From a virus: 64,000 bases of DNA. The stretch spans positions 1-64,000 of the IMG/VR virus record IMGVR_UViG_3300022745_000001, one strand, 5' to 3'. The number at the start of each line of letters is the position of its first letter. Positions within the stretch are counted from its first letter, which is position 1. The translations under genes and the position numbers were made by a program. Below are positions 9,195-54,659 of this stretch, piece by piece. The notes below the pieces were generated by a model. That model made no database searches. It worked only from the letters and a program-made list of their open reading frames with translations, and had not been told where the DNA came from.

Positions 9195-9203
9195 GGTGGC
9201 TCC

Positions 9204-36342: not shown

Positions 36343-36374
36343 CACAGCACAACACATTTACCGGAGAAAATGAC

Positions 36375-36416: not shown

Positions 36417-36469
36417 AGGTGTTGACACCTTTGGCAAGACGTTGTACATTGAGGCTTTAAGGAACAGCT

Positions 36470-36979: not shown

Positions 36980-38103
36980 GCAAGACATTACTTTCATCCC
37001 GTCAAGTTAAGCAGCTTATCAAGGCTGTTGGTAACAAGCGAACTGTGCTGGTAGAAGGGGAGGCAGGCTGTGGCAAGACATCCATTCACTACGCGCTGAA
37101 GGCCGACCCTCAGTTCGCCAACTACTACGCGCCCAAGCCCATTGACTGCACGCAGTTGAGCGATGGCTCCATCGTGATGCCCGACATCGACCGCAGCCGT
37201 GGCGTGGCGCGTGAGCTGCCCAACGAGCGCTTGGGTGTGAGCGACGAGAACCACTTGGGCACCAAGGATGCGACCCCTGTGCTGATGTGCTTCGATGAGA
37301 TCGCCAAGTCTCGTCAGTTCATCAAGGACACCATCGCACCTATCGTGTACGAGCGGCGCATCGGCAACTACGTCATGCCCAATGGCAGCGTGGTGTTCGC
37401 CTGTACCAACCTGAGCGAAGAGGGTTTGGGCGACAGCCTTGCTGCACACCTGCGCAACCGCTTGGTCATCGTCGGTATGCGCAAGCCTACCAAGGACGAG
37501 TGGGTGCAGGACTTCGCCATCCCCAACGACCTCAACGAGAACGTCATAGCTGCGGCTGAGATGTACCCGATGGTGTTCAACTCGTTCATGGACTATCGCC
37601 CCGGCGGTCAGTTCGCAAGCAAGCAGTTGCGCAAGGACAACCCGTACATCAGCGACCCCGCTGACGCAGGACAGGAGCAGGTGGTCACACCTCGCTCGCT
37701 GCACGCAGCCAGTGATCTGGTCGATCAGATGGCGCACGTTGACAACCAGACGCTCCAAGCTGCGCTGGGCGGCACAGTGGGCGAGCCGTTCGCAGCCAAC
37801 ATCATGTCGATGATCCGCTTCGGTGAGAGCCTGCCTGCATTCGACCGCATACTTGCCGACCCCGAGGGTAGCCCGCTGCCATCCAACCCCACTGCGCAAG
37901 TGGTACAATGCTTTCAGTTCCTCACGCAAGTGAAGGACAAGGAGGCAGCGGAGCAGACCAGTATCTACGTGCAACGGATGCGTGAAGAGATGCAATCTCT
38001 GTTTGTCAACTGTGTTGTTAACAGCACCAAGATGGACAAGTTTGCATTGAGCAAGACGTTTGGTTCTGCCCTTGCCAAGAATCGACAGTACCTTGGTCAG
38101 TAA
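36976..38103 (+). CDS. AAA+ ATPase, MoxR/CobS-like
   Basis: 375 aa. Walker A GEAGCGKTS and Walker B LMCFDEIAK. Paired with a downstream VWA protein. Confidence 0.8.
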   Translation: MSKTLLSSRQVKQLIKAVGNKRTVLVEGEAGCGKTSIHYALKADPQFANYYAPKPIDCTQLSDGSIVMPDIDRSRGVARELPNERLGVSDENHLGTKDATPVLMCFDEIAKSRQFIKDTIAPIVYERRIGNYVMPNGSVVFACTNLSEEGLGDSLAAHLRNRLVIVGMRKPTKDEWVQDFAIPNDLNENVIAAAEMYPMVFNSFMDYRPGGQFASKQLRKDNPYISDPADAGQEQVVTPRSLHAASDLVDQMAHVDNQTLQAALGGTVGEPFAANIMSMIRFGESLPAFDRILADPEGSPLPSNPTAQVVQCFQFLTQVKDKEAAEQTSIYVQRMREEMQSLFVNCVVNSTKMDKFALSKTFGSALAKNRQYLGQ

Positions 38104-38112
38104 GGAGGCGTC

Positions 38113-38592
38113 ATGGCTGAGTTTATCTTTCGCCCAGAAGAGGGCTATATAGATCGCGTGTTCAAGAACGGCACGGTGCGCACGCGTGTAGGAACAGACA
38201 CCGGTAGCGGCCACCTTGTCGTAAACACACGCGGTGGGAAGAAACTTGTGCACCGTTTGTTGTGGGAAAGTGTACACGGGTCAATTCCTAAAGGGCTTGA
38301 GCTTGACCACATCAACGGAAACAGAAAGGACAACCGTATCAGCAACCTGCGCTTGGTCAGTCGCAAGCAGAATGCCGAGAACCGTAGCAAGCCCCATAAG
38401 GGCAACACCAGTGGGGTGAAGGGGGTATCTTGGTACAAACGCTACGCGAGGTACGTTGCACAGATTTGCGTAAATGGCGAACGGATTACGTTGGGGTACC
38501 GCAAAACTTTGGAGGAAGCGCAAGCGCTTTACGCCGAGGCTGCTGCGAAGTACCACACCCACAATCCGTCAGCAGATAGCGGGAGCATCTGA
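38113..38592 (+). CDS. free-standing HNH homing endonuclease with a C-terminal AP2-type DNA-binding domain
   Basis: 159 aa. LELDHINGNRKDNRISNLRLVSRKQNAEN (HNH), then GVSWYKRYARYVAQICVNGERITLGYRKTLEEAQALY (AP2-like). Confidence 0.8.
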   Translation: MAEFIFRPEEGYIDRVFKNGTVRTRVGTDTGSGHLVVNTRGGKKLVHRLLWESVHGSIPKGLELDHINGNRKDNRISNLRLVSRKQNAENRSKPHKGNTSGVKGVSWYKRYARYVAQICVNGERITLGYRKTLEEAQALYAEAAAKYHTHNPSADSGSI

Positions 38593-38594
38593 TC

Positions 38595-39029
38595 ATGCAA
38601 GTCATTACGTTTGGCGGGCGCAAGTACAAGCCCATGCTTACGAATGATGGCAAGCTCGACGTGCGTACCGCTGTGGCATACGGCCCCGCTGGCAGGGGCC
38701 AGTTCATGCTCACTGTGTACGTGCGTTGCCACTCGCAAGGCGCAGGCAGCCGAGGCGGAGAGATACAGTGCGTGGACATCAACGTGATGCGCGAGATGGT
38801 ACCCAACACGATCACTGAAGCTACCCAACTAGCGAAGCTGACCTTCATGTGCAATGTGATGGCAACCAAGTGCAACACGGACTACAGGCTGCGCCTGCCG
38901 ATAGCGACGCGACCGACACCGAAGTATTCACGACCAAAGAAGGAGGTGACCAAGCCTATGGGCATGTTCTTTGATGAGTACGAAGCACAACTTAGAAAGG
39001 AGATGGAGAATGGCATACAAAGACCTTAA
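38595..39029 (+). CDS. hypothetical protein
   Basis: 144-aa ORF between the HEG and the VWA gene. Confidence 0.6.
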   Translation: MQVITFGGRKYKPMLTNDGKLDVRTAVAYGPAGRGQFMLTVYVRCHSQGAGSRGGEIQCVDINVMREMVPNTITEATQLAKLTFMCNVMATKCNTDYRLRLPIATRPTPKYSRPKKEVTKPMGMFFDEYEAQLRKEMENGIQRP

Positions 39030-40206
39030 ACCGGAGCAGAAGATCGTGGCAGTGCACACGGACTTCATGCGCCACCCCGACTTCGCCATACTTGGCGGGG
39101 TCACACAGATCGGCAAGGTGCTGATCACTGACTTGGTGCCCACTGCAGGCACCGATGGCGAGGACGTGCTGTACAACGCCGAGTTCATCAAGGACATGAC
39201 GCGCAAGCAGTTGCGCTACCTTGTTGGGCACGAGGCTATGCACAAGGCGCTGCACCACTGCACTGAGTACATGCACCTGAAGAAGAAGCACCCGCAGGAG
39301 TTTGCTATGGCAATCGACTACGTGGTGAACTGGCAGCTTGAGAGCATGGACACAGCCAAGGAGAAATTCTTGGAGCGCCCGACCAACGTGCCCCCGCTCA
39401 TTGATGACAAGTACGCCAACATGAGCGTGCCTGAAGTCATGCGCAAGCTGTTGCAGAACCCACCGCCACCACAGCAACGCCCGCAACCGATGGACGAGCA
39501 CATGGACGGCAAGCCCATGTCCGTTGACTCTAGCGAAGCCGCCGATGGCAAAGACCTGAAGACGCGCATCGAGGATGCCGTGGCGCAGGGCGCTGTCGTG
39601 GCCGAGCAGTTGCAACAGATGCGGGGTACTGCCCCCGGTGACAACGCACTGTCGGGATTCCGTGAGCGCAAGACAGACTGGCGTGGCCCGCTGCGCAAGT
39701 TCATCGCTGAGATATGCGAGGGCGATGACCAGTCACGATTTGTGCCGCCCAACCGCAGGCTGTTGCCGCTGGACATCATCATGCCGAGCCGCTTCAGTGA
39801 GGCAACCGGTGAGTTGATCGTGGCGTGTGACACATCGGCATCCATGCACGGGCTGTACCCAATCGTGTTCGGTGAGATCGCCCGCATCGCACAGCAGATG
39901 CAGCCCGAGCGCGTGCGCGTGCTGTGGTGGGATACGCGTGTGGCAGGTGATCAGGTGTTCGCCCCCAAGGACTACGCCAACATCGCCAAGCTCATGCACC
40001 CACGAGGCGGAGGGGGAACCACTGTGTCGTGCGTGGCGGGCTACATCCGCGACAAGCGGTACAAGCCCAAGGCGACGATATACCTGAGTGACGGGTACGT
40101 GGAAGCGAAGTATGAAGTTGCACCGGGGAATGTCTTATGGGGCATCTGCGGCAACACCAACTTCCGCCCCATCCGGGGCAAGCTGCTGCGCATTGAGGAG
40201 GTGTGA
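39010..40206 (+). CDS. VWA-domain protein with an N-terminal metallopeptidase-like HExxH region (DUF2201/CobT-like)
   Basis: Start set at MAYKDLK (ATG 39010) behind AAAGGAG; the track start 38971 is a TTG. Contains HEAMHKALHH and the MIDAS motif VACDTSASM. Confidence 0.7.
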   Translation: MAYKDLKPEQKIVAVHTDFMRHPDFAILGGVTQIGKVLITDLVPTAGTDGEDVLYNAEFIKDMTRKQLRYLVGHEAMHKALHHCTEYMHLKKKHPQEFAMAIDYVVNWQLESMDTAKEKFLERPTNVPPLIDDKYANMSVPEVMRKLLQNPPPPQQRPQPMDEHMDGKPMSVDSSEAADGKDLKTRIEDAVAQGAVVAEQLQQMRGTAPGDNALSGFRERKTDWRGPLRKFIAEICEGDDQSRFVPPNRRLLPLDIIMPSRFSEATGELIVACDTSASMHGLYPIVFGEIARIAQQMQPERVRVLWWDTRVAGDQVFAPKDYANIAKLMHPRGGGGTTVSCVAGYIRDKRYKPKATIYLSDGYVEAKYEVAPGNVLWGICGNTNFRPIRGKLLRIEEV

Positions 40207-40207
40207 T

Positions 40208-40621
40208 GTGCAACATCTCGAAATCGACCGCATCTCTATCTTTGATGCAATGGGGAATCTTATGGCAACAATGAATAGGCCGCCGTGGATTTCCCCCGGC
40301 GATCAGATGGCGGCAGCAGCCGCCATGAACGGCAACAGCTTGGTGCCCCTGCTCCAAGGCAAGCTCATCCGTGCGACAGCGGGCGGTGTCGAATGGGACA
40401 TGAGCAAGGAGTGGTATGGGCGTGAGCTGACGCAGTACGTGGTGCGCAAGACGAACTGGACGAAGGGCTACACAGTGCAGTTCTTCTTCGCCACCGTTGA
40501 CGGGCAGCCCGCACGCATCCACGAGTTCACCTTGTGGCTCGATGAGAAGCACACGCGTGATGAGGTCGAGCAGGCAGCGCAGGTGTACATGATGACACTC
40601 AACATGAGGAGGGTCGAGTGA
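40208..40621 (+). CDS. hypothetical protein (C-terminus parallels the next gene)
   Basis: GTG 40208, 6 nt after GAGGAGG, in frame with track ORF 40088..40621. Confidence 0.5.
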   Translation: MQHLEIDRISIFDAMGNLMATMNRPPWISPGDQMAAAAAMNGNSLVPLLQGKLIRATAGGVEWDMSKEWYGRELTQYVVRKTNWTKGYTVQFFFATVDGQPARIHEFTLWLDEKHTRDEVEQAAQVYMMTLNMRRVE

Positions 40622-41184
40622 TGGCGATAACGAAAGAGCAGTTATTGGACAAGTTTGAACGCATGTGCAAGCAGGCGCATGACGAAGCAAGTATGGTAGG
40701 AGACTTCCAACGTGCGAAAGAGATCAGACGGTATTACGAAGAAAGGAAATATGACATGGACAACGACATGATGAACAGTATCTTGGGACAGACACTGACA
40801 ACGGGCATTGGTATGGGGCAGCTTGGTGTCAGCAACGGGCTGGTCAATGCGTCCAGCACCAGTAGTATCTACCAGAACGCGTTGTTGCAACAAAACCAAT
40901 TCACGCAGGCAGCTACGCAGGCGTCAGGACTGATGGACTTCTTGCCGGAGTTCGGCGTGCTGTACCTGAACAACAAGGAGCTGCCTGCGGATTGGGCGGG
41001 CGCAAAGGTAACCGAGTTCAAACGCTTAGTTGCACGCGAGAACTGGCATGTGCAGTTCCTTAGCAAGTGGGACAAGGCGTTGGTGATCAACCTGTATCTT
41101 GACATCGAAGAGTACAACGGAAAGGAGGTAAACGAGATGGCCGCTACCTACATGGAAGCGCTCAATCAACGGAGGATGGGGTAG
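40618..41184 (+). CDS. hypothetical protein
   Basis: 188-aa ORF with an ATGA overlap. C-terminus ...EVNEMAATYMEALNQRR parallels ...EVEQAAQVYMMTLNMRR of the previous gene. Confidence 0.6.
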   Translation: MMAITKEQLLDKFERMCKQAHDEASMVGDFQRAKEIRRYYEERKYDMDNDMMNSILGQTLTTGIGMGQLGVSNGLVNASSTSSIYQNALLQQNQFTQAATQASGLMDFLPEFGVLYLNNKELPADWAGAKVTEFKRLVARENWHVQFLSKWDKALVINLYLDIEEYNGKEVNEMAATYMEALNQRRMG

Positions 41185-41238
41185 CTTGCTTAACCGACTG
41201 ATAGATAAATTTTTTCGTAGTAACTAAGGAGAGATGAC

Positions 41239-42114
41239 ATGAGCAATTTCAATTTGAATTCCGTCGCAATGCTTTGTGAGTTCAACGCCAGCGTGTGGAC
41301 AGCACGCAAGCTGGATCGCAAGAAAAGCGATGACGTGGTGAACGGTGCAGGTGCCAAGGCCAAGGGCGCTGCGCGTGTGAACAAGAACCTGCTGGCCGGT
41401 CGTGGTGAACTGGAGGCAATCGGCTCGCTGGTGGGTGAGGCTCGCACCTATGTGTACGAGAACACAACGCCGTGGTCTGACGCAGGCCAGCGACTAATCA
41501 TCACAGCACGTTTGCCTAAGTTCGATACCCGCATCGAGGACTACAAGAGCAGGTTCAATCTGCTGGTTGACGACTTCGTGAACCTGTACCCGACACTCAT
41601 CACGGCGCAGGCAATGGCGCTGGGTGATATGTTCGACCGCTCCGAGTTCCCCTCGGCCAGCGAGATTCGCCACAAGTTCGCTATGTCGTGCGACTACATC
41701 CCAGTGCCCGCCGCTGGCGACATCCGTGTGGACATCGGCAACCAAGCGCAGGACGAGCTGCGTGCACGACTGGAGGCAACCAGCAACACGCGACTCAACA
41801 AGGCTATGGCTGACGTGACCGAGCGCTTCGTGGGCCACCTGCGCCGCATGGCCGACCGCCTTGTGACCGAGAAGGACAAGAACGGCGAGGACAAGAGCCG
41901 CCGGTTCACCGAGACGCTGGTGTCCAGTGCCTTCGAGCTGTGCGACCTTGTGCGTGACTACAACGTCACGGGCGACCCGGTGCTGGGTGAGGCACGCAAG
42001 GCGCTGGAGTCTGCGCTGACAGGCGTGACGGTGGTCACACTGCGTGATGACCCAATAAAACGCGAAGAGGTGCGCGTGGCTACCAACACCATCCTGAGCA
42101 AGTTCAAGTTCTAA
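41239..42114 (+). CDS. DUF3150-like protein (tentative)
   Basis: 291 aa. The N-terminal pattern FNASVWTARKLDRKKSDDV...TPWSDAGQRLI...RFNLLVDDFVNLYP matches my memory of that family. No search was run. Confidence 0.35.
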   Translation: MSNFNLNSVAMLCEFNASVWTARKLDRKKSDDVVNGAGAKAKGAARVNKNLLAGRGELEAIGSLVGEARTYVYENTTPWSDAGQRLIITARLPKFDTRIEDYKSRFNLLVDDFVNLYPTLITAQAMALGDMFDRSEFPSASEIRHKFAMSCDYIPVPAAGDIRVDIGNQAQDELRARLEATSNTRLNKAMADVTERFVGHLRRMADRLVTEKDKNGEDKSRRFTETLVSSAFELCDLVRDYNVTGDPVLGEARKALESALTGVTVVTLRDDPIKREEVRVATNTILSKFKF

Positions 42115-42129
42115 CCAAGGAGAGATGAT

Positions 42130-42591
42130 ATGAAACTCGTTAAGTACCAGAAAGAAGCAATCGTCAAAGCCATCATGGCAGACGTACCCCGTGTAGATGA
42201 GAATGCCCGCATCAAGGAGGTGCAGCAAAAGCTCGTGGCGGCTATGTCGAAAGAGGCACAGACGCTGTACGCCGTGCGACCCAAGGCGCTGCGCACGCAG
42301 TGGCTGGCAAGCTATGACATCAACACGGATCGGCGCGGGCAGGACTTCATCGTGGGCGATGCGGACGTGGATAAGGTCATCGCCGTCTACAAGGAAGAGC
42401 AGAACGTGCGCAGCAAAGCACACAACAAGTTGAGCATGGCTGTCCACGCCTGCACCACGCTGAAGCAACTGCACGACCGCCTGCCTGAGTTCAAGAAGTA
42501 TTACCCGACTGAGGCGCAGCCCAACAAGAATGTGCCCGCGCTCATGGATGTGGCAGCAGACCTGTGCAAACTCGGCTGGCCCAAGAAATGA
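42130..42591 (+). CDS. hypothetical protein
   Basis: 153-aa ORF behind AAGGAGAG. Confidence 0.65.
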   Translation: MKLVKYQKEAIVKAIMADVPRVDENARIKEVQQKLVAAMSKEAQTLYAVRPKALRTQWLASYDINTDRRGQDFIVGDADVDKVIAVYKEEQNVRSKAHNKLSMAVHACTTLKQLHDRLPEFKKYYPTEAQPNKNVPALMDVAADLCKLGWPKK

Positions 42592-42803
42592 AAATCAAAG
42601 TAACTGGATTCTTCTTCGAGAAGAAGTGGGTTGCGGTGGTGCGTAATCTTGACGACATCGCATACTCCGGTAGCAACATGACTAAACGCGTGCTGGATCG
42701 CTACGAGTTCCCGGCTGATTCGATGAGCAAGAAGCAGCGGGACAAGTTCAAACTGACAATGCGCAAGATGTGGGAAACCCGTATTCAACTGGAGCAGTCA
42801 TGA
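42588..42803 (+). CDS. hypothetical protein
   Basis: Start at MKIKVTG (ATGA overlap), inside track ORF 42564..42803. Confidence 0.55.
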   Translation: MKIKVTGFFFEKKWVAVVRNLDDIAYSGSNMTKRVLDRYEFPADSMSKKQRDKFKLTMRKMWETRIQLEQS

Positions 42804-42949
42804 TTCCGACAAATTTATTGCAGTGGAGTAAGGACGGTGTGTTGCAGCAGTGGTGGGTTCAGCCCTCCTTGCTGCGCTACTCACCGGCAGAAGTGGAGGC
42901 CATCGCATGGGGCGGTGGCGAATGGCGTGACATACCAAAGGAGAAGTGA
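42800..42949 (+). CDS. possible 49-aa Trp-rich peptide
   Basis: ATGA overlap. MIPTNLLQWSKDGVLQQWWVQPSLLRYSPAEVEAIAWGGGEWRDIPKEK. Confidence 0.4.
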   Translation: MIPTNLLQWSKDGVLQQWWVQPSLLRYSPAEVEAIAWGGGEWRDIPKEK

Positions 42950-42950
42950 G

Positions 42951-43697
42951 ATGAGTAAAGCAAAAGTGATCCATGAGTACCTCCAGTCGCATCCCGATGC
43001 GCTGGTGGCCGACATCGCAAAAGCGACAGGCCTAGTCAACAGCGACATCGCAGCGCGGCTGTGTGGGCTGCGGGACAAGGGCATAGCGGTGTCCACGGAG
43101 GCAGGGCGCAGCCTGTCCAACCGGCCCATCCTGCGCTGGTCGCTGACCGGCAAGACGTTCGACAAGCCCAAGCCTCGTGAACCTAAGCAGAAAGAATACG
43201 TATCCTCACAGCCGAACATCAGTCTGGATGCGTTAGTGGAGAGCATGGCCGAGGGGCTGGTGGCGGCGCTGGTGCAGAAGGTCAAGGCCAAACTGCCCGC
43301 CGCACTGGCCGGTGTCACGCCTGCGGCACACCTCACGCTGCCCGCTCCAGCCCCTGCGGCGGTGGCGCTACCTGCGCCTGAGCCCACCCCCGCACCACGC
43401 ACCTACAAGCCCGTCATCGGCGTTGTGGGCCTTCTGCCGCAGCAAGCCGGGGCGTTGCAGGAGAAGTTCGGCGGGTCACTGGACATCCGCTTCTGGAACG
43501 ATGGCGACGACAAGGGGCGGCTGCGCTCCATTGCCGACAACTGCGAGGCTGTGTTCCTGCACACACGCCACGCCGGGCACCATACCGACCAGATGCTGAA
43601 GACCTACAGCGCCAACCTGCGCCGCGTGACCGGCGGCACGAGCAACATGGAGGTGGCGATCCGTGGGTACTTTGTGAATAAGGAGACAGCGAAATGA
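42951..43697 (+). CDS. winged-helix DNA-binding protein with a C-terminal domain of unknown function
   Basis: Start at MSKAKVIHEYL behind AAAGGAGAAG. The N-terminus HEYLQSHPDALVADIAKATGLVNSDIAARLCGLRDKGIAV is MarR/wHTH-like. Confidence 0.55.
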   Translation: MSKAKVIHEYLQSHPDALVADIAKATGLVNSDIAARLCGLRDKGIAVSTEAGRSLSNRPILRWSLTGKTFDKPKPREPKQKEYVSSQPNISLDALVESMAEGLVAALVQKVKAKLPAALAGVTPAAHLTLPAPAPAAVALPAPEPTPAPRTYKPVIGVVGLLPQQAGALQEKFGGSLDIRFWNDGDDKGRLRSIADNCEAVFLHTRHAGHHTDQMLKTYSANLRRVTGGTSNMEVAIRGYFVNKETAK

Positions 43698-43789
43698 TCG
43701 AACGTGTTTTCTATGCCGTGACGTGGACGCTTGGCCTGATCGGCGCACCCATCGTCTTCCTCGTGTACCTGTTGGATTGGAGTAAATGA
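43694..43789 (+). CDS. possible 31-aa membrane peptide
   Basis: MIERVFYAVTWTLGLIGAPIVFLVYLLDWSK, with ATGA overlaps on both sides. Confidence 0.35.
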   Translation: MIERVFYAVTWTLGLIGAPIVFLVYLLDWSK

Positions 43790-44034
43790 TGCCGCAATTT
43801 GGAGTAAACACAACCCTTGAGGTGCATCTGTGTGAGGATGCACATGACGCCACTAAGCGTGGCTTTTTCTACCGCCCGCCTATCTTTCTGCCGATTGAGA
43901 TCGACAAGGTTGTGGTGGTGGATAAAGGCACAGTGGATGGTAATGCGACGGTCGATCTGGTGATGGTCGATGAGAAGGGTCAGAAGTACGTGTGCATGGT
44001 TACAGCTAACTTGTTGAGGAGTCTTCCGATATGA
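43786..44034 (+). CDS. hypothetical protein
   Basis: 82-aa ORF. Confidence 0.6.
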   Translation: MMPQFGVNTTLEVHLCEDAHDATKRGFFYRPPIFLPIEIDKVVVVDKGTVDGNATVDLVMVDEKGQKYVCMVTANLLRSLPI

Positions 44035-44246
44035 AACACTTACACACCAAGACATTGAAGGATGGTCGCCAGCACATCTTGATTGAACTCCAACCCGGAG
44101 AGGGCACTGGGATTCTTCACGTAGCGCCGCACAGCTTTTACAAGCTGGGCTACCCGCTGGATGACCAAATCATTGAGAGCCACCACCTTGCAGAAGTCAA
44201 GCGCGTGGCATGGGACGCTTACTCGCAAGAATGGGTGGACGTATGA
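44031..44246 (+). CDS. hypothetical protein
   Basis: 71-aa ORF with an ATGA overlap. Confidence 0.6.
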   Translation: MKHLHTKTLKDGRQHILIELQPGEGTGILHVAPHSFYKLGYPLDDQIIESHHLAEVKRVAWDAYSQEWVDV

Positions 44247-44596
44247 CAGACCTTGAAATCAGCAAAGCTCTTGCACTGGCGATTGGGTATCTGCCTGAGC
44301 ATGTACGCGAGTACGGTGTTGGCAGCAGCAACTACAACAGGGGCGAAGGCATCATCCAAGTCTTCCGTCACGACGGCGTGTATGGCGTTAATCGCACCGA
44401 GTGCAATTTCCTATGGAACGACTTTCGGTACACCACATGGAACGTCATCGGCCCGATAGCTGAACGCTTTGATGCGTTCCCTAAGAAACTGGCAAGCATG
44501 GAGGGTTGGTGGGCAGACGTGTTCGGTAAGGATGCACGGTTCGCAGACACCCCGCAGAAAGCCATCGCGCTTGCGGTGATTGGAGCGAAGCAATGA
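44243..44596 (+). CDS. DUF2591/NinX-like protein (tentative)
   Basis: Start at MTDLEISKALALAIGY (ATGA overlap), inside track ORF 44210..44596. Confidence 0.4.
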   Translation: MTDLEISKALALAIGYLPEHVREYGVGSSNYNRGEGIIQVFRHDGVYGVNRTECNFLWNDFRYTTWNVIGPIAERFDAFPKKLASMEGWWADVFGKDARFADTPQKAIALAVIGAKQ

Positions 44597-44805
44597 CACC
44601 AACCAATGAGTTGCGCTTTGTTGAGCGCACAGTACAGCTAGGCCCGTTCTATGTAACAACCGACAGTAACGGCAACCTGATACCTGCTACGCAAGGCTAT
44701 AAGGTTTTGCAGCAGAAGTGGCAGAAGATTGAATTCATTCACGATATGAATCGAGTTACTGCTGAAGAATGGCGCGATGTGCCACTAGTGAAGGAATTCG
44801 CATGA
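44593..44805 (+). CDS. hypothetical protein
   Basis: 70-aa ORF. Confidence 0.6.
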   Translation: MTPTNELRFVERTVQLGPFYVTTDSNGNLIPATQGYKVLQQKWQKIEFIHDMNRVTAEEWRDVPLVKEFA

Positions 44806-45368
44806 ATGATGCAGAACGCATAGCCCAATGGCTTGAATCGAGGCCAAGCCTTTACGTTGGTGTGTCACAAGCAGCAGCACTACTCCGTAGCCAAGCGGCT
44901 GAGATTGAAGGATGGAAAGCCGACCAGAAAGAGAACCTGCGTAATCAGTGTGACTTACATGCTGAGATTGAGCGGCTGAAAGCAGAGTCCAACGAAATGG
45001 CGCTGATCGGTGTGCGGAGCGTGGCTGATGTTCTTGAACTCCGCGCAGAGAACGAACAACTGCGTGAGTCATTAGCAGACTTTGCAAGCGCAGCGGTCTC
45101 TTTGCAGAGACAGGTTGAATCACCAAAGCAGGAGCAAGCGGAGCCGGTGGCGTGGATGACTGAAAAAGGTGATGTTTACAACGTAGAGCAGTGCGGAAAT
45201 GTTATTGACCCTAGCCATACGCCGCTCTACACCGCACCCAAAGGCCAAACCGAGTTGCTGCGGCAGGCTATGGAAGCGTTGGAGCATAGCTTTATGAAGG
45301 ACGACAAGTTCGACAAGATGAACGCATCCATCACCGCAATCAAACAGCACTTGGGGGAAGCAACATGA
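44802..45368 (+). CDS. hypothetical coiled-coil protein
   Basis: Start at MNDAERIAQW (ATGA overlap), inside track ORF 44769..45368. Confidence 0.6.
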   Translation: MNDAERIAQWLESRPSLYVGVSQAAALLRSQAAEIEGWKADQKENLRNQCDLHAEIERLKAESNEMALIGVRSVADVLELRAENEQLRESLADFASAAVSLQRQVESPKQEQAEPVAWMTEKGDVYNVEQCGNVIDPSHTPLYTAPKGQTELLRQAMEALEHSFMKDDKFDKMNASITAIKQHLGEAT

Positions 45369-45577
45369 TCAGCGAATTCGACCACCCCGATCACGGATGG
45401 AAGTGGACACGCCTTGAAGTTGAGTTCATCAACAAGAAGCTGAAAGAGGCGTACGACAAGGGCTACAAGCACGGCGCATCTGGCAATACCACCAACGATC
45501 CCGCTGAAATTCGCAGGGTCTTTGAACTGGACGATGCCGAATACCCGCCGCCTGAATCGGGGTTTATGAAGCTATGA
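45365..45577 (+). CDS. hypothetical protein
   Basis: 70-aa ORF. Confidence 0.6.
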   Translation: MISEFDHPDHGWKWTRLEVEFINKKLKEAYDKGYKHGASGNTTNDPAEIRRVFELDDAEYPPPESGFMKL

Positions 45578-45855
45578 GCGCCGCGCCTATCAGCCTTGAG
45601 CGCTACAAGCGGTGCATACGCGCCGTGTATGACGCACTCAAAGACAGCGATGGTCTTACTGCATACGAGCTGGAGAAGGAAACGGGGTTTCCCCGCAGCA
45701 CCATCCGGTTCGCGCTGGATGACAATCTGCTGTTCTACGTTGATCGTTGGAAGCTCACACGCAAGCACTACGCAACGCAGGTGTGGTGCGCCGCAGAGAT
45801 GAAGCGTTACGACGACTGCCCACGACCGGAGAGTATGAATGACACACACAATTAA
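45574..45855 (+). CDS. small winged-helix-like DNA-binding protein
   Basis: 93 aa. YDALKDSDGLTAYELEKETGFPRSTIRFALDDN. Confidence 0.45.
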   Translation: MSAAPISLERYKRCIRAVYDALKDSDGLTAYELEKETGFPRSTIRFALDDNLLFYVDRWKLTRKHYATQVWCAAEMKRYDDCPRPESMNDTHN

Positions 45856-46039
45856 CCGCGACAAGACCGCCGCCGTTGCGACCGACTACTACTGGATACC
45901 CATCACCAAGGACACGCCGCGAGGCGTGAAGCTGCAACTGTTGGGTATCGGTGGTGTCGCCGCCTATGGAATCTGGGATGGCAAGTCCCAGTTTTTTACG
46001 CACTGGGCACCATTGCCCAAGAAGCCCTATGATGTATAA
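45839..46039 (+). CDS. DUF551-like protein (tentative)
   Basis: 66 aa. YYWIPITKDTPRG...THWAPLPKKP. Confidence 0.4.
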   Translation: MTHTINRDKTAAVATDYYWIPITKDTPRGVKLQLLGIGGVAAYGIWDGKSQFFTHWAPLPKKPYDV

Positions 46040-46281
46040 TGTTCAAAACTTTACAAACTTGGAGAAGTATGCTTACCTATGAAGTACACAACCGGGAGGA
46101 GTTGGTGGCGGCTATCAAAGCCGCATCGCAGCCCTCCTTTGCGGAGGCCCGCAACAACCCCGTGGTGATCAAGAACGGCAGCGCAACCTACCGTTTCAAG
46201 GAGGGGATTCAGGAAGACCGCGGCTTGAAGATCATCGCCAACATCCGTGCGACCACCAAGAAGGCGTTCGACATCGCATGA
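46039..46281 (+). CDS. hypothetical protein (alternative start 46069)
   Basis: TAATG overlap at 46039. A second ATG at 46069 follows GGAGAAG. Confidence 0.5.
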   Translation: MFKTLQTWRSMLTYEVHNREELVAAIKAASQPSFAEARNNPVVIKNGSATYRFKEGIQEDRGLKIIANIRATTKKAFDIA

Positions 46282-46484
46282 AAGCCAAAGACCAATGTTC
46301 ACCGTTCAACTGGCAGGGCAAGCCGTCTATCTTCACCACTGGCAACTGGAGGTCAGCCCAGAACTTCACAGGGGCGAACTCGACACGCTCGGCCAACCAG
46401 TCTCGGCTGGAGCCGCGCCCGACATACATCACCAGCGACTCGGTGTATCTTCGTGCCGCAACGCCCATGAGGCCCATGAAATGA
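46278..46484 (+). CDS. hypothetical protein
   Basis: 68-aa ORF with an ATGA overlap and G/C-rich third codon positions. Preferred over the overlapping track ORF 46247..46654. Confidence 0.45.
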   Translation: MKAKDQCSPFNWQGKPSIFTTGNWRSAQNFTGANSTRSANQSRLEPRPTYITSDSVYLRAATPMRPMK

Positions 46485-46654
46485 AAGACAGTGACGTACC
46501 CAACTTCGCAGCTTGGCAGACTGACACCCTCGCCAAGTATGCGCTGGAGCAGTACCTTCAGAACATCGAGCTGCGCAACGCGTTGGAGCAAGTCAGGCTG
46601 GACTTGCGTGACGCGATGAAAGAGCTTCGCAAACATCAGGACGACTGGAAATGA
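46481..46654 (+). CDS. 57-aa helical protein
   Basis: MKDSDVPNFAAWQTDTLAKYALEQYLQN..., with its ATG overlapping the upstream stop. It is the 3' part of track ORF 46247..46654. Confidence 0.45.
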   Translation: MKDSDVPNFAAWQTDTLAKYALEQYLQNIELRNALEQVRLDLRDAMKELRKHQDDWK

Positions 46655-46866
46655 TCGAAGACACCGAAGCCCTTGTGTGCGTTGACATCCGCTACCGCCA
46701 GCAGATGGGCATCAAGAAGTACGGCACTACGGTGGCAGGCAACAAGCTGACACAGCGCCAATGGCTGCAACACCACTACGAAGAGCTGCTTGACGCAGCA
46801 GTTTATGCCAAAAGACTTTTACAGGAGATGGACGATGAAACTGGACGGAATGCACGTAATGGTTGA
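46651..46866 (+). CDS. hypothetical protein (weak MazG-like helical pattern)
   Basis: 71 aa. ...QQMGIKKYGTTVAGNKLTQRQWLQHHYEELLDAAVY. Confidence 0.4.
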   Translation: MIEDTEALVCVDIRYRQQMGIKKYGTTVAGNKLTQRQWLQHHYEELLDAAVYAKRLLQEMDDETGRNARNG

Positions 46867-47353
46867 TCTGGAGACGCTGGGCACTGCGCCCGGCTCTGTG
46901 ATCATTTCTCTGGGCGCAGCCCAGTTCAATGAAGGTGGCGTGATCAGCACCTTCTACCGGCGCATTGATGCACAGTCTTGTGTACGCGCAGGCTTGACGA
47001 TGGACGCATCCACGGTGGAGTGGTGGATGAACCAGAGCGCCGATGCGCGTCATGTGTTCACCCAAAAGGGTGACGCGTTGCACGATGCGCTGCACGACTT
47101 CTGCGGTTGGTTCCCCAAGGGGGCATGCCTGTGGGGTAACGGCGCTACGTTTGACAACGTACTGCTCGACAGCGCGTATCGGGCAATCAAGCTGGATAAG
47201 CCTTGGCCCTATTGGGGCGACCGCTGCTACCGCACGGTGAAGGCTTTGTACAAACACATTGAGGCCGACCCGTTTGAAGGCGTGAAGCACAACGCGCTCG
47301 ATGACGCAGTACATCAGGCCCGCCACGTAGTGAAGATTGCAAATGACGCTTAA
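46835..47353 (+). CDS. DEDDh 3'-5' exonuclease (DnaQ-like)
   Basis: Start at MKLDGMHV behind AGGAG. Motifs VDLETLG, NGATFDNVLL and HNALDDAVHQA. Confidence 0.75.
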   Translation: MKLDGMHVMVDLETLGTAPGSVIISLGAAQFNEGGVISTFYRRIDAQSCVRAGLTMDASTVEWWMNQSADARHVFTQKGDALHDALHDFCGWFPKGACLWGNGATFDNVLLDSAYRAIKLDKPWPYWGDRCYRTVKALYKHIEADPFEGVKHNALDDAVHQARHVVKIANDA

Positions 47354-47561
47354 ACCCGTATCCCCTGTTGCGAAGCTGGATCGCAACGAAGTCCGTATCG
47401 TGCTTGAAGAAGCACTGTCGCAAGACTTCGAGCAGGTCTACATCATCGGCTTCAAGAACAAGCAGGCGCACTTCAAAGGCTCCAAGATCGACTCCAACAT
47501 GGAGGCTATCGGGGCGCTGGAGATGTGCAAGATGCAAATCTTTGAGGTGAGCGGACGATGA
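47343..47561 (+). CDS. hypothetical protein
   Basis: ATG 47343; the track start 47337 is a TTG. Confidence 0.55.
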   Translation: MTLKPVSPVAKLDRNEVRIVLEEALSQDFEQVYIIGFKNKQAHFKGSKIDSNMEAIGALEMCKMQIFEVSGR

Positions 47562-47887
47562 CCCCGGAAGCCAAGGTAAAGACAGCGGTGAAGCGCCTGC
47601 TCGTTGAGCGGGGCATCTACTACTTCATGCCGCCCGGCGTTGGCTATGGCCGCGCCGGGATACCAGACATCATCGCCTGCCCCAGCGGGCGCTTCTTGGC
47701 AATCGAATGCAAGGCTGGTAAGGGTAAGCCCACCGCGCTGCAAGAGCGCGAGATGCAGATGATCGAAGAATCAGGCGGGCTGGCTTTTGTGGCCCGCGAA
47801 AACAATATGGAAGAACTGTGCGACCTCATAGAACTAATCAAGGAAATGACATGGAAGATGAATTCAAAACACAACTCCTCGCCCTGA
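47558..47887 (+). CDS. VRR-NUC domain nuclease
   Basis: 109 aa. GIPDIIACPSGRFLAIECKAGKGKPTALQ (D...ExK core). Confidence 0.75.
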   Translation: MTPEAKVKTAVKRLLVERGIYYFMPPGVGYGRAGIPDIIACPSGRFLAIECKAGKGKPTALQEREMQMIEESGGLAFVARENNMEELCDLIELIKEMTWKMNSKHNSSP

Positions 47888-48105
47888 GCGAAGCGGAGCA
47901 GCACACGGTGCTGGCTATCGCCAGTGCAGCGGTGCGCACCATCAGCAGCGAGCGCGGCGCGATGATAGTCGTGTACGACGAAGAGGGCGATGGACAGGCC
48001 ATGCTGATGTCCTGTGGCAACCAGTTCATCGTCGGCCCGATGCTGGCAACAGCGCAGGCTATTGGTCGCCGCTTCTACGCAGACACGCCCGAGGTTGTGC
48101 AGTGA
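47851..48105 (+). CDS. hypothetical protein
   Basis: Start at MEDEFK behind AAGGAAATGAC; the track start 47818 is a GTG. Confidence 0.5.
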   Translation: MEDEFKTQLLALSEAEQHTVLAIASAAVRTISSERGAMIVVYDEEGDGQAMLMSCGNQFIVGPMLATAQAIGRRFYADTPEVVQ

Positions 48106-48353
48106 AAGTTACGTGGTACATCAGTGCCGACGCATGGCTGCAAGGCATCCTGTGCGGTCAGTTTCGCGTCGAGGAACGCGACAACTTCAGCGTGGTGCGT
48201 GATGCCCTACATGGCTACAACGCGCTGCGCGTGGACTGGGATGAAACAGACCCGCCACTTGTAAAAGACCGCATTGAGATAATGAACAACATGCTACTCG
48301 CAGTAGAGGTGCGCTACAACGACATGAAGGACAAACATGGCACAACCGTATAA
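48102..48353 (+). CDS. hypothetical protein
   Basis: 83-aa ORF. Its end overlaps the orphaned polymerase start. Confidence 0.6.
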   Translation: MKVTWYISADAWLQGILCGQFRVEERDNFSVVRDALHGYNALRVDWDETDPPLVKDRIEIMNNMLLAVEVRYNDMKDKHGTTV

Positions 48354-48375
48354 GACAATCCTGTGTTATCATTGA
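48337..48375 (+). pseudogene. orphaned original 5' end of the DNA polymerase gene (12 codons then stop)
   Basis: ATG GCA CAA CCG TAT AAG ACA ATC CTG TGT TAT CAT TGA = MAQPYKTILCYH*, compared with MSQPYKTILCIDYE at 48863. Six of the shared codons differ only at the wobble base. Confidence 0.7.
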
Positions 48376-48398
48376 TTTTCCAATATGTTGGGAATAAT

Positions 48399-48866
48399 AT
48401 GAAATCACATGGAGAAATAAAAAGAGTTGACGGGAAACGCGTGGCCTCACCGGAGTACCGTTCTTGGCAAATGATGAAAAACAGGTGTCTAAACCCAAAA
48501 GCCAGAGACTATCCGTACTATGGCGGGCGCGGAATCAAACTATGCAAACGTTGGTTGCAGTTTGAAAACTTTTTGGAGGATATGGGGCGCAGGCCAGACG
48601 CCATGTATACCCTCGAACGTCGGAACGGAGACAAGGACTACACCCCTAAGAACTGTTGCTGGGCGACACGCGAAACACAAGCGCGTAACCGAGAATATGC
48701 GGCTACGAAGGAGTGGGAACTGGCTGACAAGTTGCAAGTGTCAAGAGCTACCACGCGACACTATCTTTGGGTTTTGCGAAAGCTAGTACGCGGCACGCCG
48801 ACACGCTATAAATTGTCGGAAACAACAATCAACATCATCAAAACGCACATGGGAGATCGTTTATGA
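48399..48866 (+). CDS. HNH-family homing endonuclease (paralog of 36470..36979)
   Basis: Start at MKSHGEIK, inside track ORF 48363..48866. Pattern YRSWQMMKNRCLNPKARDYPYYGGRGIKLCKRW...ERRNGDKDYTPKNCCWATRETQARNRE. Confidence 0.7.
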   Translation: MKSHGEIKRVDGKRVASPEYRSWQMMKNRCLNPKARDYPYYGGRGIKLCKRWLQFENFLEDMGRRPDAMYTLERRNGDKDYTPKNCCWATRETQARNREYAATKEWELADKLQVSRATTRHYLWVLRKLVRGTPTRYKLSETTINIIKTHMGDRL

Positions 48867-50881
48867 GCCAACCCTACAAGACCATACTTTGCATAGACTA
48901 CGAGACGGCGTGGTCTTCCAAGGAAGACAGCCCGTTAGGTAAATATACTTTGGCGTCCATGACAACCGAGGAGTACATTCGTGACGAACGCTTCCACGCC
49001 CACGGTGCCTGCATCCACGAAGTCGGAGCAGATACGAAAATCCAATGGTATTCACACAGTGAGCTACCAAAGATTCTTGCCATGTACGACTGGACTAAGA
49101 CTGCGGTGGTGGGGCACAACGCCATGTTCGACGTGGGCATCCTGTCCCTGCGTTACGGCGTCAACCCATGCTTCATCTTCGACACGCTATCAATGGCCCG
49201 CGCTATGCGTGGAAGTGAAGCCGGTAACAGCTTAGCGAAACTGGCCGAAGCCTATGGCTACCCGCCCAAGGGTCGCGCTGTGTACAGCACCGATGGGCTG
49301 CGCGAGCTTGATGCGCAGACTGAAAAAGAACTGGCCGAATACTGCAAGCATGACGTGTACTTGTGCGAACAGATTTTCGGCAAGCTGCTGATGCGTGTGT
49401 TCCCCGACGGCAGCACCGCCGGGTCATACCCCACCAAGGAGCTGCGCCTGATCGACATGACCCTGCGTATGTTCACCGAGCCGGAGTTCGAGCTGGATCG
49501 GGAGCTGTTGGAGAAGGCGCTGGTGGAGGAGAACGACAAGCTGGCCGCTGCGCTGACGAAGGTGAGCGTGGAGCCTACCCAACTGGCAAGCAACGATATG
49601 TTTGCTGATGTACTGCGCAGCCTCGGCATCGAGCCGCCGCAGAAGGTGAGCAAGACAACCGGCAAGCTGACCTATGCGTTTGCCAAGACAGATGCGCTGT
49701 TCCAAGCACTGCTCAACGGCGACAACGAAGACGCCGCCCTGATGTGCGAAGCCCGCCTGAAGGTGAAGTCCACACTGGAGCGCACACGCGCACAGCGGTT
49801 CATCGACATCTCCAAGCGCGGTTGCCTGCCGGTGCCACTGCACTACTACGGCGCGGGTACTGGACGGTACGCTGCCACCGGCAACATCAACATGCAGAAC
49901 ATGAAGCGCGGCTCGTTCCTGCGCAAGTCGATCATGGCACCGGATGGTTATGTGATCTGCGCTGGTGACTTGTCACAGATTGAGCCGCGTGTGCTGGCGT
50001 GGCTGTCGGACTACGATGAGATGCTTGACATCTTCCGTGCCGGTGGCGATCCCTATGCTACGTTTGGCGCAACGATGTTCAGCATCCCCGGCTTGACCAA
50101 AGAGAGCCACCCGCTGCTGCGTCAGAGCGCGAAGTCTGCGTTGTTGGGCGCTGGGTATCAGCTTGGCTGGGCCTCGTTCGCTGGGCAGCTCCTGACAGGC
50201 TTCCTCGGTGCGCCGCCGCAACGCTATACCAAGGCCGATGCCAAGCAGTTGGGTGTGACCGGCAATCAGGTCAGCGCCTTCATCAGCAACGGCGAGAACC
50301 TGAAGAAGATGGAGAAGATCGCCCACACCTGCACCGATGAGGAGCTGCTGATCCACTGCCTTGCAGCCAAGGCGATCATCGACAAGTACCGCGCAGCGGC
50401 ACACCCGGTAGCAGGCTATTGGGAGTTGCTGGGCAACCTCATCGTGCACAGCTTGATCGAAGGCAACGAGTACAACCACAAGGGAGTGCTCACGTTTCGC
50501 AAGGGCGAGATCGAGATGGTCAACGGTATGCGGATGTATTACCGCGACATCAAGGAAGAGAAGGATGAGAAGGGCCGTGCGCAGTATTCATTCAGCACCG
50601 GCAAGCTGCGCAAGAAGCTGTACGCTGGCTTGCTGGCAAACAACACCACGCAAGGACTGGCCCGCATCGTGATGACGGACGGCCTGTTGCGCGTGCAGAA
50701 GCGCTTCCCTGTGAAGGGGACAGTGCATGACGAAGGACTCGTGCTGGTGCCAGAGGCTGGCGCAGCGGAGGGGAGCGCTTGGATCAAGGAGCAAATGATT
50801 CAGGTGCCCAAGTGGATGCCCGGCATCCCGCTCAATGCGGACGTTGGGTACAACAAACGGTATGGACTTGCGAAGTCGTAG
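48863..50881 (+). CDS. family A DNA polymerase with a 3'-5' exonuclease domain
   Basis: 672 aa. Exo motifs CIDYETAW, HNAMFDVGIL and YCKHDVYL. Pol motifs DLSQIEPRVLA (A), RQSAKSALLGAGYQ (B) and VHDEGLV (C). Confidence 0.9.
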   Translation: MSQPYKTILCIDYETAWSSKEDSPLGKYTLASMTTEEYIRDERFHAHGACIHEVGADTKIQWYSHSELPKILAMYDWTKTAVVGHNAMFDVGILSLRYGVNPCFIFDTLSMARAMRGSEAGNSLAKLAEAYGYPPKGRAVYSTDGLRELDAQTEKELAEYCKHDVYLCEQIFGKLLMRVFPDGSTAGSYPTKELRLIDMTLRMFTEPEFELDRELLEKALVEENDKLAAALTKVSVEPTQLASNDMFADVLRSLGIEPPQKVSKTTGKLTYAFAKTDALFQALLNGDNEDAALMCEARLKVKSTLERTRAQRFIDISKRGCLPVPLHYYGAGTGRYAATGNINMQNMKRGSFLRKSIMAPDGYVICAGDLSQIEPRVLAWLSDYDEMLDIFRAGGDPYATFGATMFSIPGLTKESHPLLRQSAKSALLGAGYQLGWASFAGQLLTGFLGAPPQRYTKADAKQLGVTGNQVSAFISNGENLKKMEKIAHTCTDEELLIHCLAAKAIIDKYRAAAHPVAGYWELLGNLIVHSLIEGNEYNHKGVLTFRKGEIEMVNGMRMYYRDIKEEKDEKGRAQYSFSTGKLRKKLYAGLLANNTTQGLARIVMTDGLLRVQKRFPVKGTVHDEGLVLVPEAGAAEGSAWIKEQMIQVPKWMPGIPLNADVGYNKRYGLAKS

Positions 50882-51865: not shown

Positions 51866-52137
51866 TGCCTAAGTCATCGCCAGCAAAACTTGCCTACATG
51901 GCTAAGTACCAGAAAAGCCCCGAGCGCATCGAAGCGCGGGAGGAAGCAAACAAGGCTCGCTATCAGGCCATGAAGGCGGGCAAGGTGCGCAAGGGCGATG
52001 GCAAGGATGTCGCCCACATCAAGGCGCTGGACAGCGGCGGCAAGACAGTGCCGGGTAATACAAAAATCGAAAGCGAAAAGTCCAATCGGGACTGGCGTAA
52101 GGGCCGGAGTTCGTATAAAGTACCGGTTGACAAGTAA
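51865..52137 (+). CDS. small basic protein with an HNH-like motif (tentative)
   Basis: 90 aa. DVAHIKALDSGGKTVPGNTKIESEKSNR. Confidence 0.35.
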   Translation: MPKSSPAKLAYMAKYQKSPERIEAREEANKARYQAMKAGKVRKGDGKDVAHIKALDSGGKTVPGNTKIESEKSNRDWRKGRSSYKVPVDK

Positions 52138-54301: not shown

Positions 54302-54302
54302 G

Positions 54303-54659
54303 ATGAACCGTGAAGACATCGCACGCGTCTGCCACGAAGTGAATCGCGCCTACTGTGCAGCGTTGGGGGACAACTCCCAACCTGCATGGGAAGATGCGCC
54401 ACAGTGGCAAAAAGATAGCGCCCTAGTTGGCGTACACCTGCACTGCGACAGTAATGTCGGCCCGGAAGCCAGCCATTTTTCGTGGACTGTGCAGAAGGTA
54501 AACGATGGCTGGAAGTATGGCCCCGTAAAAGATGCCGACAAGAAAGAGCACCCCTGCATGGTGCCGTTCGAGCAATTGCCAAAAGAGCAGCAAGCGAAAG
54601 ATTTTATTTTCCGCGCTGTGGTTCACGCCCTGCGCCCAACAAGCCCCGCAACCAACTGA
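54303..54659 (+). CDS. RyR-domain-like protein
   Basis: 118 aa. ...KVNDGWKYGPVKDADKKEHPCMVPFEQLPKEQQAKD. Confidence 0.5.
   Translation: MNREDIARVCHEVNRAYCAALGDNSQPAWEDAPQWQKDSALVGVHLHCDSNVGPEASHFSWTVQKVNDGWKYGPVKDADKKEHPCMVPFEQLPKEQQAKDFIFRAVVHALRPTSPATN

Follow-up and report, generated by a model that had tools for sequence, protein, structure and literature searches.

A homing endonuclease gene (HEG) is set into the 5' end of a family A DNA polymerase gene in IMG/VR virus record IMGVR_UViG_3300022745_000001, of which a stretch of 64,000 nt, the window, was analysed (coordinates are window positions unless another locus is named, and the features of the two HEG-bearing loci lie on the plus strand). 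Positions 48367-48958 very probably form a mobile homing cassette, composed of a promoter/leader flank, a gene for an HNH-like endonuclease (HEG1) and a functional replacement of the first 22-32 polymerase codons. The first ten native codons lie stranded in front of the cassette as a mini open reading frame (mini-ORF). The comparator without HEGs is a 70-kb IMG/VR contig carrying two relevant loci, L001 (polymerase) and L161 (ATPase). It is 93-99% identical to the window over aligned blocks, and both HEG1 and its window paralogue, HEG2, are absent from it. A DNA search of GenBank phages gave no match, and the best polymerase match there was only 31% identical.

Organisation of the polymerase locus

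The host gene of the cassette (48863-50881) is intact and encodes a 672-aa polymerase with 3'-5' exonuclease (Pfam DNA_pol_A and DNA_pol_A_exo1; phrog_17). It begins with MSQPYKTILCIDYE at 48863, and further upstream, at 48337-48375, lies the 12-codon mini-ORF MAQPYKTILCYH, closed by a stop codon and overlapping the stop of the preceding gene; both were read in this way in the initial annotation of the sequence. Native polymerase codons 1-10 account for 48337-48366 of the mini-ORF, and its last two codons and stop are derived from the cassette. The cassette 5' flank (48367-48398, 25% GC) is kept in 11 cassette lineages and leads into HEG1 (48399-48866), which has PHROG matches; its 155-aa product is an HNH-like endonuclease whose C-terminal domain is helical and resembles a helix-turn-helix (HTH). 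The ATG start of HEG1 is backed by alignment to homologues, its stop overlaps the polymerase ATG as ATGA, as had been noted, and the Shine-Dalgarno (SD) sequence of the polymerase, GGGAGA (48851-48856), falls within its final codons. The foreign replacement of the polymerase 5' end, codons 1-32, occupies 48863-48958; the initial annotation ended the feature at 48905, and the foreign segment actually runs to about 48958. Within it, 48896-48907 read GAC TAC GAG ACG (D-Y-E-T), the functional copy of the ExoI motif and the predicted core of an immunised target.

Between the remnant and the new polymerase start, 3 codons are identical, 6 differ synonymously, as had been counted before, and 1 differs non-synonymously, so that 21/30 nt and 9/10 amino acids agree. 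When the upstream 600 nt were shuffled (n=2000), no shuffle rose above 6/10 amino acid identity and none of the 2000 reached 7/10. The duplicated start is thereby confirmed as real and beyond chance.

Native and imported gene starts

Using the HEG-less contig, the two copies of the polymerase start could be told apart. Homology between L001 and the window ends at 48370 and restarts at 48959. The L001 polymerase starts ATGGCACAACCGTATAAGACAATCCTGTGT/ATCGACTTTGAA, and the first 30 nt of the mini-ORF (48337-48366) are 100% identical to it (30/30 nt). The working start is diverged: 48863-48958 is only ~65-70% identical to L001, with 7 identical, 10 synonymous and 4 non-synonymous codons among codons 1-21 and then a 7-codon indel, and from 48959 onward the identity rises to ~98%. 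The L001-type polymerase 5' region carries ATGGCACAACCGTATAAGACAATCCTGTGTATCGACTTTGAAACC, and the window's own allele carries ATAGACTACGAGACG. GC content is 49% in the imported tract and 59% in the remainder of the gene. Within this tract, 48928-48958 (31 nt, DSPLGKYTLAS, including the 7-codon insertion) is specific to the window, and L001 and a second cassette-bearing contig, L166, both read EYTLSK there; it may reflect a longer donor tract or a later change.

A matching layout is found at an ATPase gene, where HEG2 (36470-36979, 169 aa) is a paralogue of HEG1 (42% identity over 96 aa, E = 3e-22), as had been proposed, and is absent from L161. The displaced native ATPase 5' end, MSKTLLSARQVKT with its stop, lies at 36375-36416, and its first part, 36375-36410, is identical to native codons 1-12 of L161 (36/36 nt). 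A 59-nt cassette flank (36411-36469) follows, with a promoter-like element, an inverted repeat and a Walker-A remnant, and the HEG2 stop overlaps the ATPase start (MSKTLLSSRQVK at 36976) as ATGA. Homology to L161 ends at 36410 and restarts at 36973, placing the insertion after codon 12. Remnant and new start share 6 identical codons, with 5 synonymous and 1 non-synonymous difference. The foreign replacement, codons 1-32 (36976-37071), is ~76% identical to L161, ends at the Walker A motif and holds 11 identical, 17 synonymous and 4 non-synonymous codons; 255 of the next 268 codons are identical and the following ~800 nt are ~99% identical. The GC content of this imported tract is 48% vs 61%, and imported tracts and HEGs together stand at 48-49% against 59-61% for the native gene cores.

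At both genes, then, the diverged tract gives way to 97-100% identity, the pattern of a donor co-conversion tract beside the element. Because the remnants are identical to the HEG-less starts and the working starts are diverged, comparison with this sibling genome marks the mini-ORFs as stranded native starts and the working starts as imports. The "wobble-recoded start" of the initial annotation therefore stands as a duplicated, mostly synonymous start, but it is better described as an allelic, diverged donor copy of 22-32 codons, with non-synonymous changes and an indel.

Movement of the cassette

The same cassette was also found on L166, a 1.6-kb ENA contig from a more distant metagenomic phage. 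Over the flank, the HEG and polymerase codons 1-22 (48367-48927), the two agree at 554/561 nt (98.9%), and in the replacement core they have in common, 48863-48927, at 64/65 nt. Outside the cassette the similarity is lower, with 69-80% identity in the upstream genes, 81% in the downstream polymerase and 27/30 nt in the remnants. The left junction, CTGTGT/TATCAT, falls at the identical nucleotide in both, and the distant cassette of L168 has its left junction at the same codon boundary. A ~99% identical cassette at the same junction amid 69-81% flanks indicates recent horizontal movement. At the same time, both HEGs show presence/absence polymorphism at one precise site in near-identical genomes (flanks 93-99%). 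Cassettes more similar than their flanks, presence or absence in near-isogenic genomes and sharp co-conversion tracts make up the signature of a homing element. The earlier argument that the architecture is no accident is borne out by the shared cassette of the window and L166 and by the recurrence of the layout at PolA, the ATPase and a third gene.

HEG1 homologues are numerous (750 at E <= 1e-20). Their genomic contexts were examined in a sample of 12 (8 looked-up homologues and IMG/VR contigs L081-L084), and in 12/12 the gene lies directly upstream of a same-family PolA gene, mostly with a 4-nt xTGA overlap. A HEG family placed before, and overlapping, the starts of essential genes, as the initial annotation had anticipated, is thus found. 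No HEG was present at the polymerase in the 80 best polymerase relatives in IMG/VR (0/80), so that occupied sites are the minority, and a DNA-pattern scan of IMG/VR with the cassette flank returned nothing beyond four contigs already found.

An automated scan for N-terminal duplicates, with a shuffle control and z scores, was carried out over 145 loci. It recovered the polymerase and ATPase cases, the strongest at z = 7-13 and the weaker at z = 3-5. Remnant mini-ORFs at polymerase genes (z = 3-13) were found in L168 (remnant (V)SKPYERILC, functional start MSRPYERILCVDFET), L171 (MTQPYKTML, MKQPYERILTIDVET), L177 (MTAPYDRIIA, MSRPYDRILTVDLET) and L173 (MFGR.., MFGRRTLVVDVET). The duplicate is missing from most members of the wider family in this survey, and the design therefore belongs to particular lineages and not to the whole protein family. 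Two candidates from the scan were set aside. The very high duplicate score of L225 does not reflect a remnant; it comes from tandem HEG paralogues, two of which lie at 1560-2400 (MVRKRLELTGRRFGSWTVL... and MGRNRLELTGRKFGSWTVL...), reminiscent of clustering at one locus. The pair MPLLVK vs MPVIVK in L114/L116 was marginal (z about 4) and was left uncounted. Separately, L175 (3470-6370) has a HEG-linked polymerase that, with a gene call of 966 aa, is unusually long for the family and may contain an insertion or fusion; its ExoI motif reads IDAET, and it overlaps the HEG by 8 nt.

The ATPase cassette has its own family. No close relatives of HEG2 were found in IMG/VR, and its homologues (225 at E <= 1e-20) came from a large protein database. 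All those retrieved lie directly upstream of a ~375-aa ATPase gene, which is followed by a DUF2201 gene. In L181 the remnant MAKFLSHRQVSALIKAV-DTH-GKTG and a stop precede the HEG and MTKPLGRKQVYNLIKAVGHKRTVLVEGEAGSSKT follows it. The 145-locus scan also uncovered a third HEG lineage, upstream of a VRR-NUC-like gene, where L210 reads ATGGCACAAACACCTGAA/CCACGGTATAAT... against a functional ATGGCACAGACCCCAGAA, and L200 reads MARMPE/CCATGGTAAAAT against MARTPE. In all three lineages the order is a native 5' remnant, a promoter-like element, the HEG and a synonymously diverged new start. The identical architecture at two targets described in the initial annotation is matched by the ATPase locus and is extended here to a third target gene.

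The probable target

The polymerase insertion lies directly 5' of the I-D-F-E-T codons, which encode the ExoI (DxE) motif of the proofreading domain. To compare the target codons, 51 distinct HEG-less alleles were set against 12 HEG-linked alleles. In the HEG-less alleles the GA. TT. GA. AC positions are at least 95% conserved, and D-F-E is present in 77/78 HEG-less alleles. Of the 12 HEG-linked alleles, 10 have a substitution in base 1 or 2 of the TTY codon of the functional copy (TAC in the window; CTA, GTA or GCA in others), giving D-Y/L/V/A-E. The older remnants carried by the cassettes show the opposite change: every one retains TTY and has lost the catalytic Glu codon (CCA or CTA). Each copy of the site is thus altered as its function allows, and the probable target is the set of conserved ExoI codons GAY-TTY-GAR-AC, altered in both copies of occupied genomes. 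At two HEG-PolA loci that are more distant, L085 (~2010-2200) and L087 (~4410-4650), the polymerase behind the HEG appears shifted by +1 nt in or directly after the DFET codons (MNILTLDF / ETYFDDDYTLKKMTTESY and MSIERILFLDFET / ..YAKGYTLRSMTPAEY, respectively); a sequencing error, loss of gene function or a frameshift at the putative target might account for it.

The cassette flank and its older remnant

It was found that the 32-nt flank of the polymerase cassette holds several elements in a small space. A -10-like TATCAT (48367-48372) has a TG ahead of it (48364-48365), a decayed copy of polymerase codons ~10-19 occupies 48368-48394, and an SD-like GGGA lies at 48390-48393. The decayed copy, read in the +1 frame, gives IIDFPICWE against the native (I)DFETFWD, aligns colinearly with codons ~10-19 and matches native ATCGACTTTGAAACCTTTTGGGA at 16/23 nt. 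Across all eleven cassette lineages the flank conforms to (TGn)TAYAxT-n-GAYTTYCCA-nnn-nnn-TGG-RAA and ends ~5-10 nt before the ATG. The conserved TAYAxT is a putative extended -10 element and TGGGA the putative SD of the HEG. Since the decayed remnant reaches to about codon 19, the ancestral insertion point lay there, deeper than codon 10. The placement of the insertion near codon 10 in the initial annotation thus holds for the present junction, which follows codon 10, but not for the ancestral site.

The flanks of the other cassettes are built in a similar way. HEG2 is preceded by a promoter-like TTGACA-17-TACATT at 36422-36450 (scanner match 10/12) and by a decayed Walker-A remnant, GGCAAGACG, at 36433-36441; the decayed Walker-A segment GTnGACACCnnnGGCAARACR is common to the window and L181. 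L183 carries a sigma-70-like TTGACA-16-TATAAT. A perfect 8-bp inverted repeat, AAAGGTGT-TG-ACACCTTT, at 36415-36432 overlaps the -35-like TTGACA of the HEG2 cassette and could be an operator or a hairpin.

The HEG1 protein

HEG1 matches PHROG 3377/374/8790 at E = 1e-34 to 1e-36, and its PHROG matches annotated as HNH or restriction endonucleases span 1e-34 to 1e-49. An AlphaFold model built from 56 sequences (pLDDT 93) predicts a hairpin and a helix at the N-terminus, a beta-beta-alpha unit in the middle (strands 71-74 and 86-89, helix 91-96) and a helical domain at the C-terminus. The residues N85 and N97 are invariant, and His4, elsewhere in the protein, is nearly so. Compared with predicted phage structures, the model gave 103 matches at E <= 0.001, several of the named ones being called HNH or HTH homing endonuclease. 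By hhalign, LDR..NC.W..Q..NR of HEG1 pairs with LDH..NL.L..N..NR of the window's HNH_3-AP2 protein, in the motif region only and with a weak E = 0.021. The HNH label of the initial annotation is drawn from the PHROG profiles and this weak motif alignment, in which the Asn residues are invariant and the catalytic His is replaced by Arg. HEG1 is therefore called HNH-like, and its presumed nuclease activity follows from the population-genetic signature of the cassette.

Homing mechanism and alternative explanations

In the proposed mechanism, the endonuclease would cut cassette-free polymerase alleles at or close to the junction of codons 10 and 11 (TGT and ATC), with a recognition sequence that would cover the conserved ExoI codons GAY-TTY-GAR-AC. 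During co-infection the break would be repaired from a cassette-bearing genome. At the left end the recipient's own codons 1-10 would be kept and become the stranded mini-ORF; this junction may form by homologous crossover or by end-joining. At the right end, recombination would take place within the polymerase gene, near the invariant MTTEEYIRD block. The product would be the native remnant, then the cassette, then a hybrid but intact polymerase, in which neither target copy could be cut any longer, the functional copy having changed F to Y and the carried remnant having lost its Glu codon. Cut site, repair pathway, promoter use and translational coupling are proposed from sequence comparison, as is cleavage at the "extreme 5' end". 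Neither an intron nor an intein is required by the element.

The gene in front of the polymerase (48102-48353, 83 aa) lies outside the cassette and serves as context; its stop is 17 nt inside the native polymerase start. It is ~96% identical to L001 in this region, and among the 80 polymerase-relative loci its homologue is present in L001 only. The upstream neighbour of the polymerase varies among lineages. Because both homology arms would lie within a conserved essential gene, the element would be independent of this variable neighbour.

Several observations count against the homing cassette as described. HEG1 had no match among Pfam, NCBIfam or PDB sequences; where HNH enzymes canonically have their general-base His, all 56 aligned sequences have Arg (R74, motif (D/E)R); and a PDB fold search of the model returned nothing significant, the best nuclease being the HNH enzyme PacI at E = 3.4. 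The occupied alleles L167 and L168 keep TTT at the proposed target, so the pattern of target alteration is not absolute. A generic promoter scanner found no full sigma-70 -35/-10 site in the polymerase cassette, and the extended -10 reading is for this reason drawn only from conservation across cassettes. Remnants range from 2 to 17 codons across lineages, those of L081-L084 and L167 having two or three codons only, and the left junction may therefore not always form alike. No donor lineage was found for the cassette of the window.

The variable remnant length fits a different account, in which the HEG is an ordinary free-standing intergenic one and the remnants are accidental by-products: where donor and recipient lack common upstream homology, one-sided repair and an illegitimate left join would strand the native 5' end anew each time, and the remnant would be neither heritable nor useful to the element. 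The upstream genes do differ between relatives, and the fresh part of the remnant is native to the recipient, as such an account would have it. Against it, the window and L166 share one junction to the nucleotide, the junction of distant L168 falls at that codon boundary, and three HEG lineages have one common layout. In addition, every cassette carries a conserved older remnant (codons ~10-19), so the duplication is inherited with the element. As an explanation of the present cassettes this account is improbable, and as a route by which the architecture originated it is possible. The missing HNH histidine, the lack of a solved-structure match, the C-terminal helical domain and the consistently predicted translational coupling to a specific downstream gene could instead point to a DNA-binding HTH regulator of that gene, spread passively by phage mosaic recombination with no active homing nuclease. 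This is less probable still, since presence and absence differ between near-isogenic genomes, a 99% identical cassette occurs in 70-80% identical backgrounds with sharp co-conversion tracts, both copies of the conserved target motif bear systematic changes, and N85, N97 and the beta-beta-alpha element are invariant; passive recombination would also leave the displaced starts at three genes unexplained.

Two further explanations can be given hardly any weight. Group I introns bearing HNH genes are known from phage polymerase genes, and a mini-ORF that keeps the native start, still coupled to the gene before it, might be taken for polymerase exon 1, with a self-splicing intron or an intein after codon 10. 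However, no Rfam match at E <= 1 was found anywhere in 36200-49200, just 32 nt of non-coding sequence precede HEG1 and none follow it, and a stop lies two codons past the junction, between the remnant and HEG1. The downstream copy starts from an SD and ATG of its own, its protein sequence is conserved, and it is therefore translated independently. The two N-terminal codon copies flanking HEG1 could likewise suggest a local tandem duplication of the gene start within one genome, into which the HEG was inserted later. That account is rejected because the two copies differ in origin: the upstream one is 100% native, and the downstream one is foreign, being ~65-70% identical to the sibling genome, lower in GC and, together with the HEG, 99% identical in a diverged phage. 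A mobile homing cassette that replaces the gene start remains the favoured explanation.

Relation to known systems

To our knowledge, HEGs have been thought to enter coding sequence safely only by way of introns or inteins, and otherwise to stay intergenic. The closest functional parallel is provided by the WHO ('weird HO') elements at yeast FBA1 (Coughlan et al. 2020, PMC7282813; Osborne et al. 2026 preprint, 10.64898/2026.08.13.744650). In Torulaspora each of these elements pairs an endonuclease gene with another version of the 3' half of FBA1, an essential gene, and leaves FBA1 fragments behind, a replacement mode that the authors call unique and rare (PMC7282813; 10.64898/2026.08.13.744650). 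The phage cassette likewise joins an endonuclease gene to a replacement copy of one end of its host gene and leaves the displaced native end behind; the essential host gene is restored and not disrupted, and the target region is diversified in occupied alleles. The differences are also clear. WHO elements replace the 3' half of FBA1 in a yeast nuclear genome, whereas the phage cassettes replace the 5' 22-32 codons of other genes. The WHO nuclease is a LAGLIDADG/zinc-finger protein of the HO type, intein-like, and the HNH-like phage protein is unrelated to it. Tandem element clusters were not seen for the phage cassettes here, which, unlike WHO elements, bring a promoter-like leader derived from a decayed target and would tie host-gene translation to the stop codon of the HEG. 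The two also differ in abundance, the phage family having hundreds of members and WHO elements being described as rare. The cassette thus works like a WHO element and lies outside the WHO protein family.

Mobile gene ends have also been reported in fungal mitochondria, as mORFs with foreign C-termini in atp6 of Allomyces macrogynus and in atp6, atp9, cox2 and nad3 of Glomus (PMC3630166). They share with the phage cassette a foreign duplicated gene end with an endonuclease ORF, a displaced native end identical to that of a sister taxon, and an inserted end that is diverged in DNA and conserved in protein (PMC3630166). They differ in that mORFs occur at the 3' end, often fused in frame to the host gene, and in organelle genomes. 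The mitochondrial endonuclease ORFs are of other families, GIY-YIG and LAGLIDADG.

Among phages, the T4 seg and mob genes are classical free-standing HEGs with co-conversion of flanking markers (PMC2988022, PMC2790892). An intronless endonuclease gene beside its target, a polymorphic target and donor co-conversion are common to these genes and the cassette, but classical HEGs are intergenic and have no duplicated fragment, whereas the cassette lies within the coding region and carries a replacement start. A third HEG of the window, HEG3 (38113-38592), behaves in the classical manner. HEG cassettes that invade the coding region of an essential gene with function preserved are known from T4 mobA/gene 60, with its bypass cassette, and from the Aeh1 nrdA/mobE "genes in pieces". 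These rely on ribosomal bypassing or on a protein split into two subunits, in contrast to the present cassette, which regenerates a full-length gene by duplicating and replacing its start. No description of a 5'-end equivalent was found in the searchable phage literature, and a survey of ICP1 HEGs does not describe 5' remnants. A Xanthomonas phage paper on HNH genes and duplications was set aside as not relevant, being about tail-fibre domain duplications.

Possible significance

Until now, descriptions of gene-end replacement have been confined to 3' ends, in the nuclear genome of yeast and in fungal mitochondria. The phage cassettes are the mirror-image solution at the 5' end, with at least three endonuclease lineages, three different replication/repair genes and hundreds of metagenome homologues, and the gene-start-replacement design appears common in phages. 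A broader proposal, less likely than not, is that these cassettes represent a widespread, unrecognised phage class of gene-start-replacement homing elements, the counterpart of WHO, in which the stranded target pieces are functional, serving as left arm, ribosome feed and promoter/leader. If so, the fresh native remnant would provide a left homology arm guaranteed in every target genome and would also feed ribosomes to the HEG, and the old decayed target copy would have been exapted as promoter and leader of the HEG. The endonuclease may in addition bind this copy, its own disabled target, as an operator and so regulate its own gene, by analogy with I-TevI, which is autoregulatory.

Replacement of the gene start by such cassettes explains how a free-standing HEG can become independent of the mosaic gene neighbourhood of phages, and why some otherwise puzzling mini-ORFs mimic the N-terminus of the next essential gene, a useful rule for annotation. 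For a nuclease family that is uncharacterised and has no canonical HNH histidine, it predicts recognition sites in the ExoI and Walker-A regions, and it offers natural examples of an arms race at the codons of catalytic motifs.

Other differences between the window and its HEG-less relative

HEG3, a canonical HNH_3 + AP2 protein gene located just downstream of the ATPase, is absent from L161. Beside it, the 3' end of the ATPase (37881-38103) is ~78% identical to L161 against ~99% for the gene core; with this apparent co-conversion tract and no duplicated gene fragment, HEG3 resembles the classical intergenic HEGs. In the other direction, L001 carries an HNH-AP2-type ORF at 9108-9764 (218 aa, ...IDHIDGCSTNNVLSNLR...), the site of which is empty in the window (equivalent 52104-52132). 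With this ORF and the window HEGs, the near-isogenic pair differs by reciprocal HEG presence at no fewer than four sites. Mosaic difference extends to further insertions in the window relative to L001, at 47346-47572 (228 nt, including an ORF at 47337-47561) and 54302-54657 (~357 nt). The N-terminus of a window ORF at 47558-47887 (MTPEAKVKTAVKRLL...GIPDIIACPSGRFLAIECKAGKG) is homologous to the VRR-NUC-like genes of L210 and L200, and the site is unoccupied in the window.

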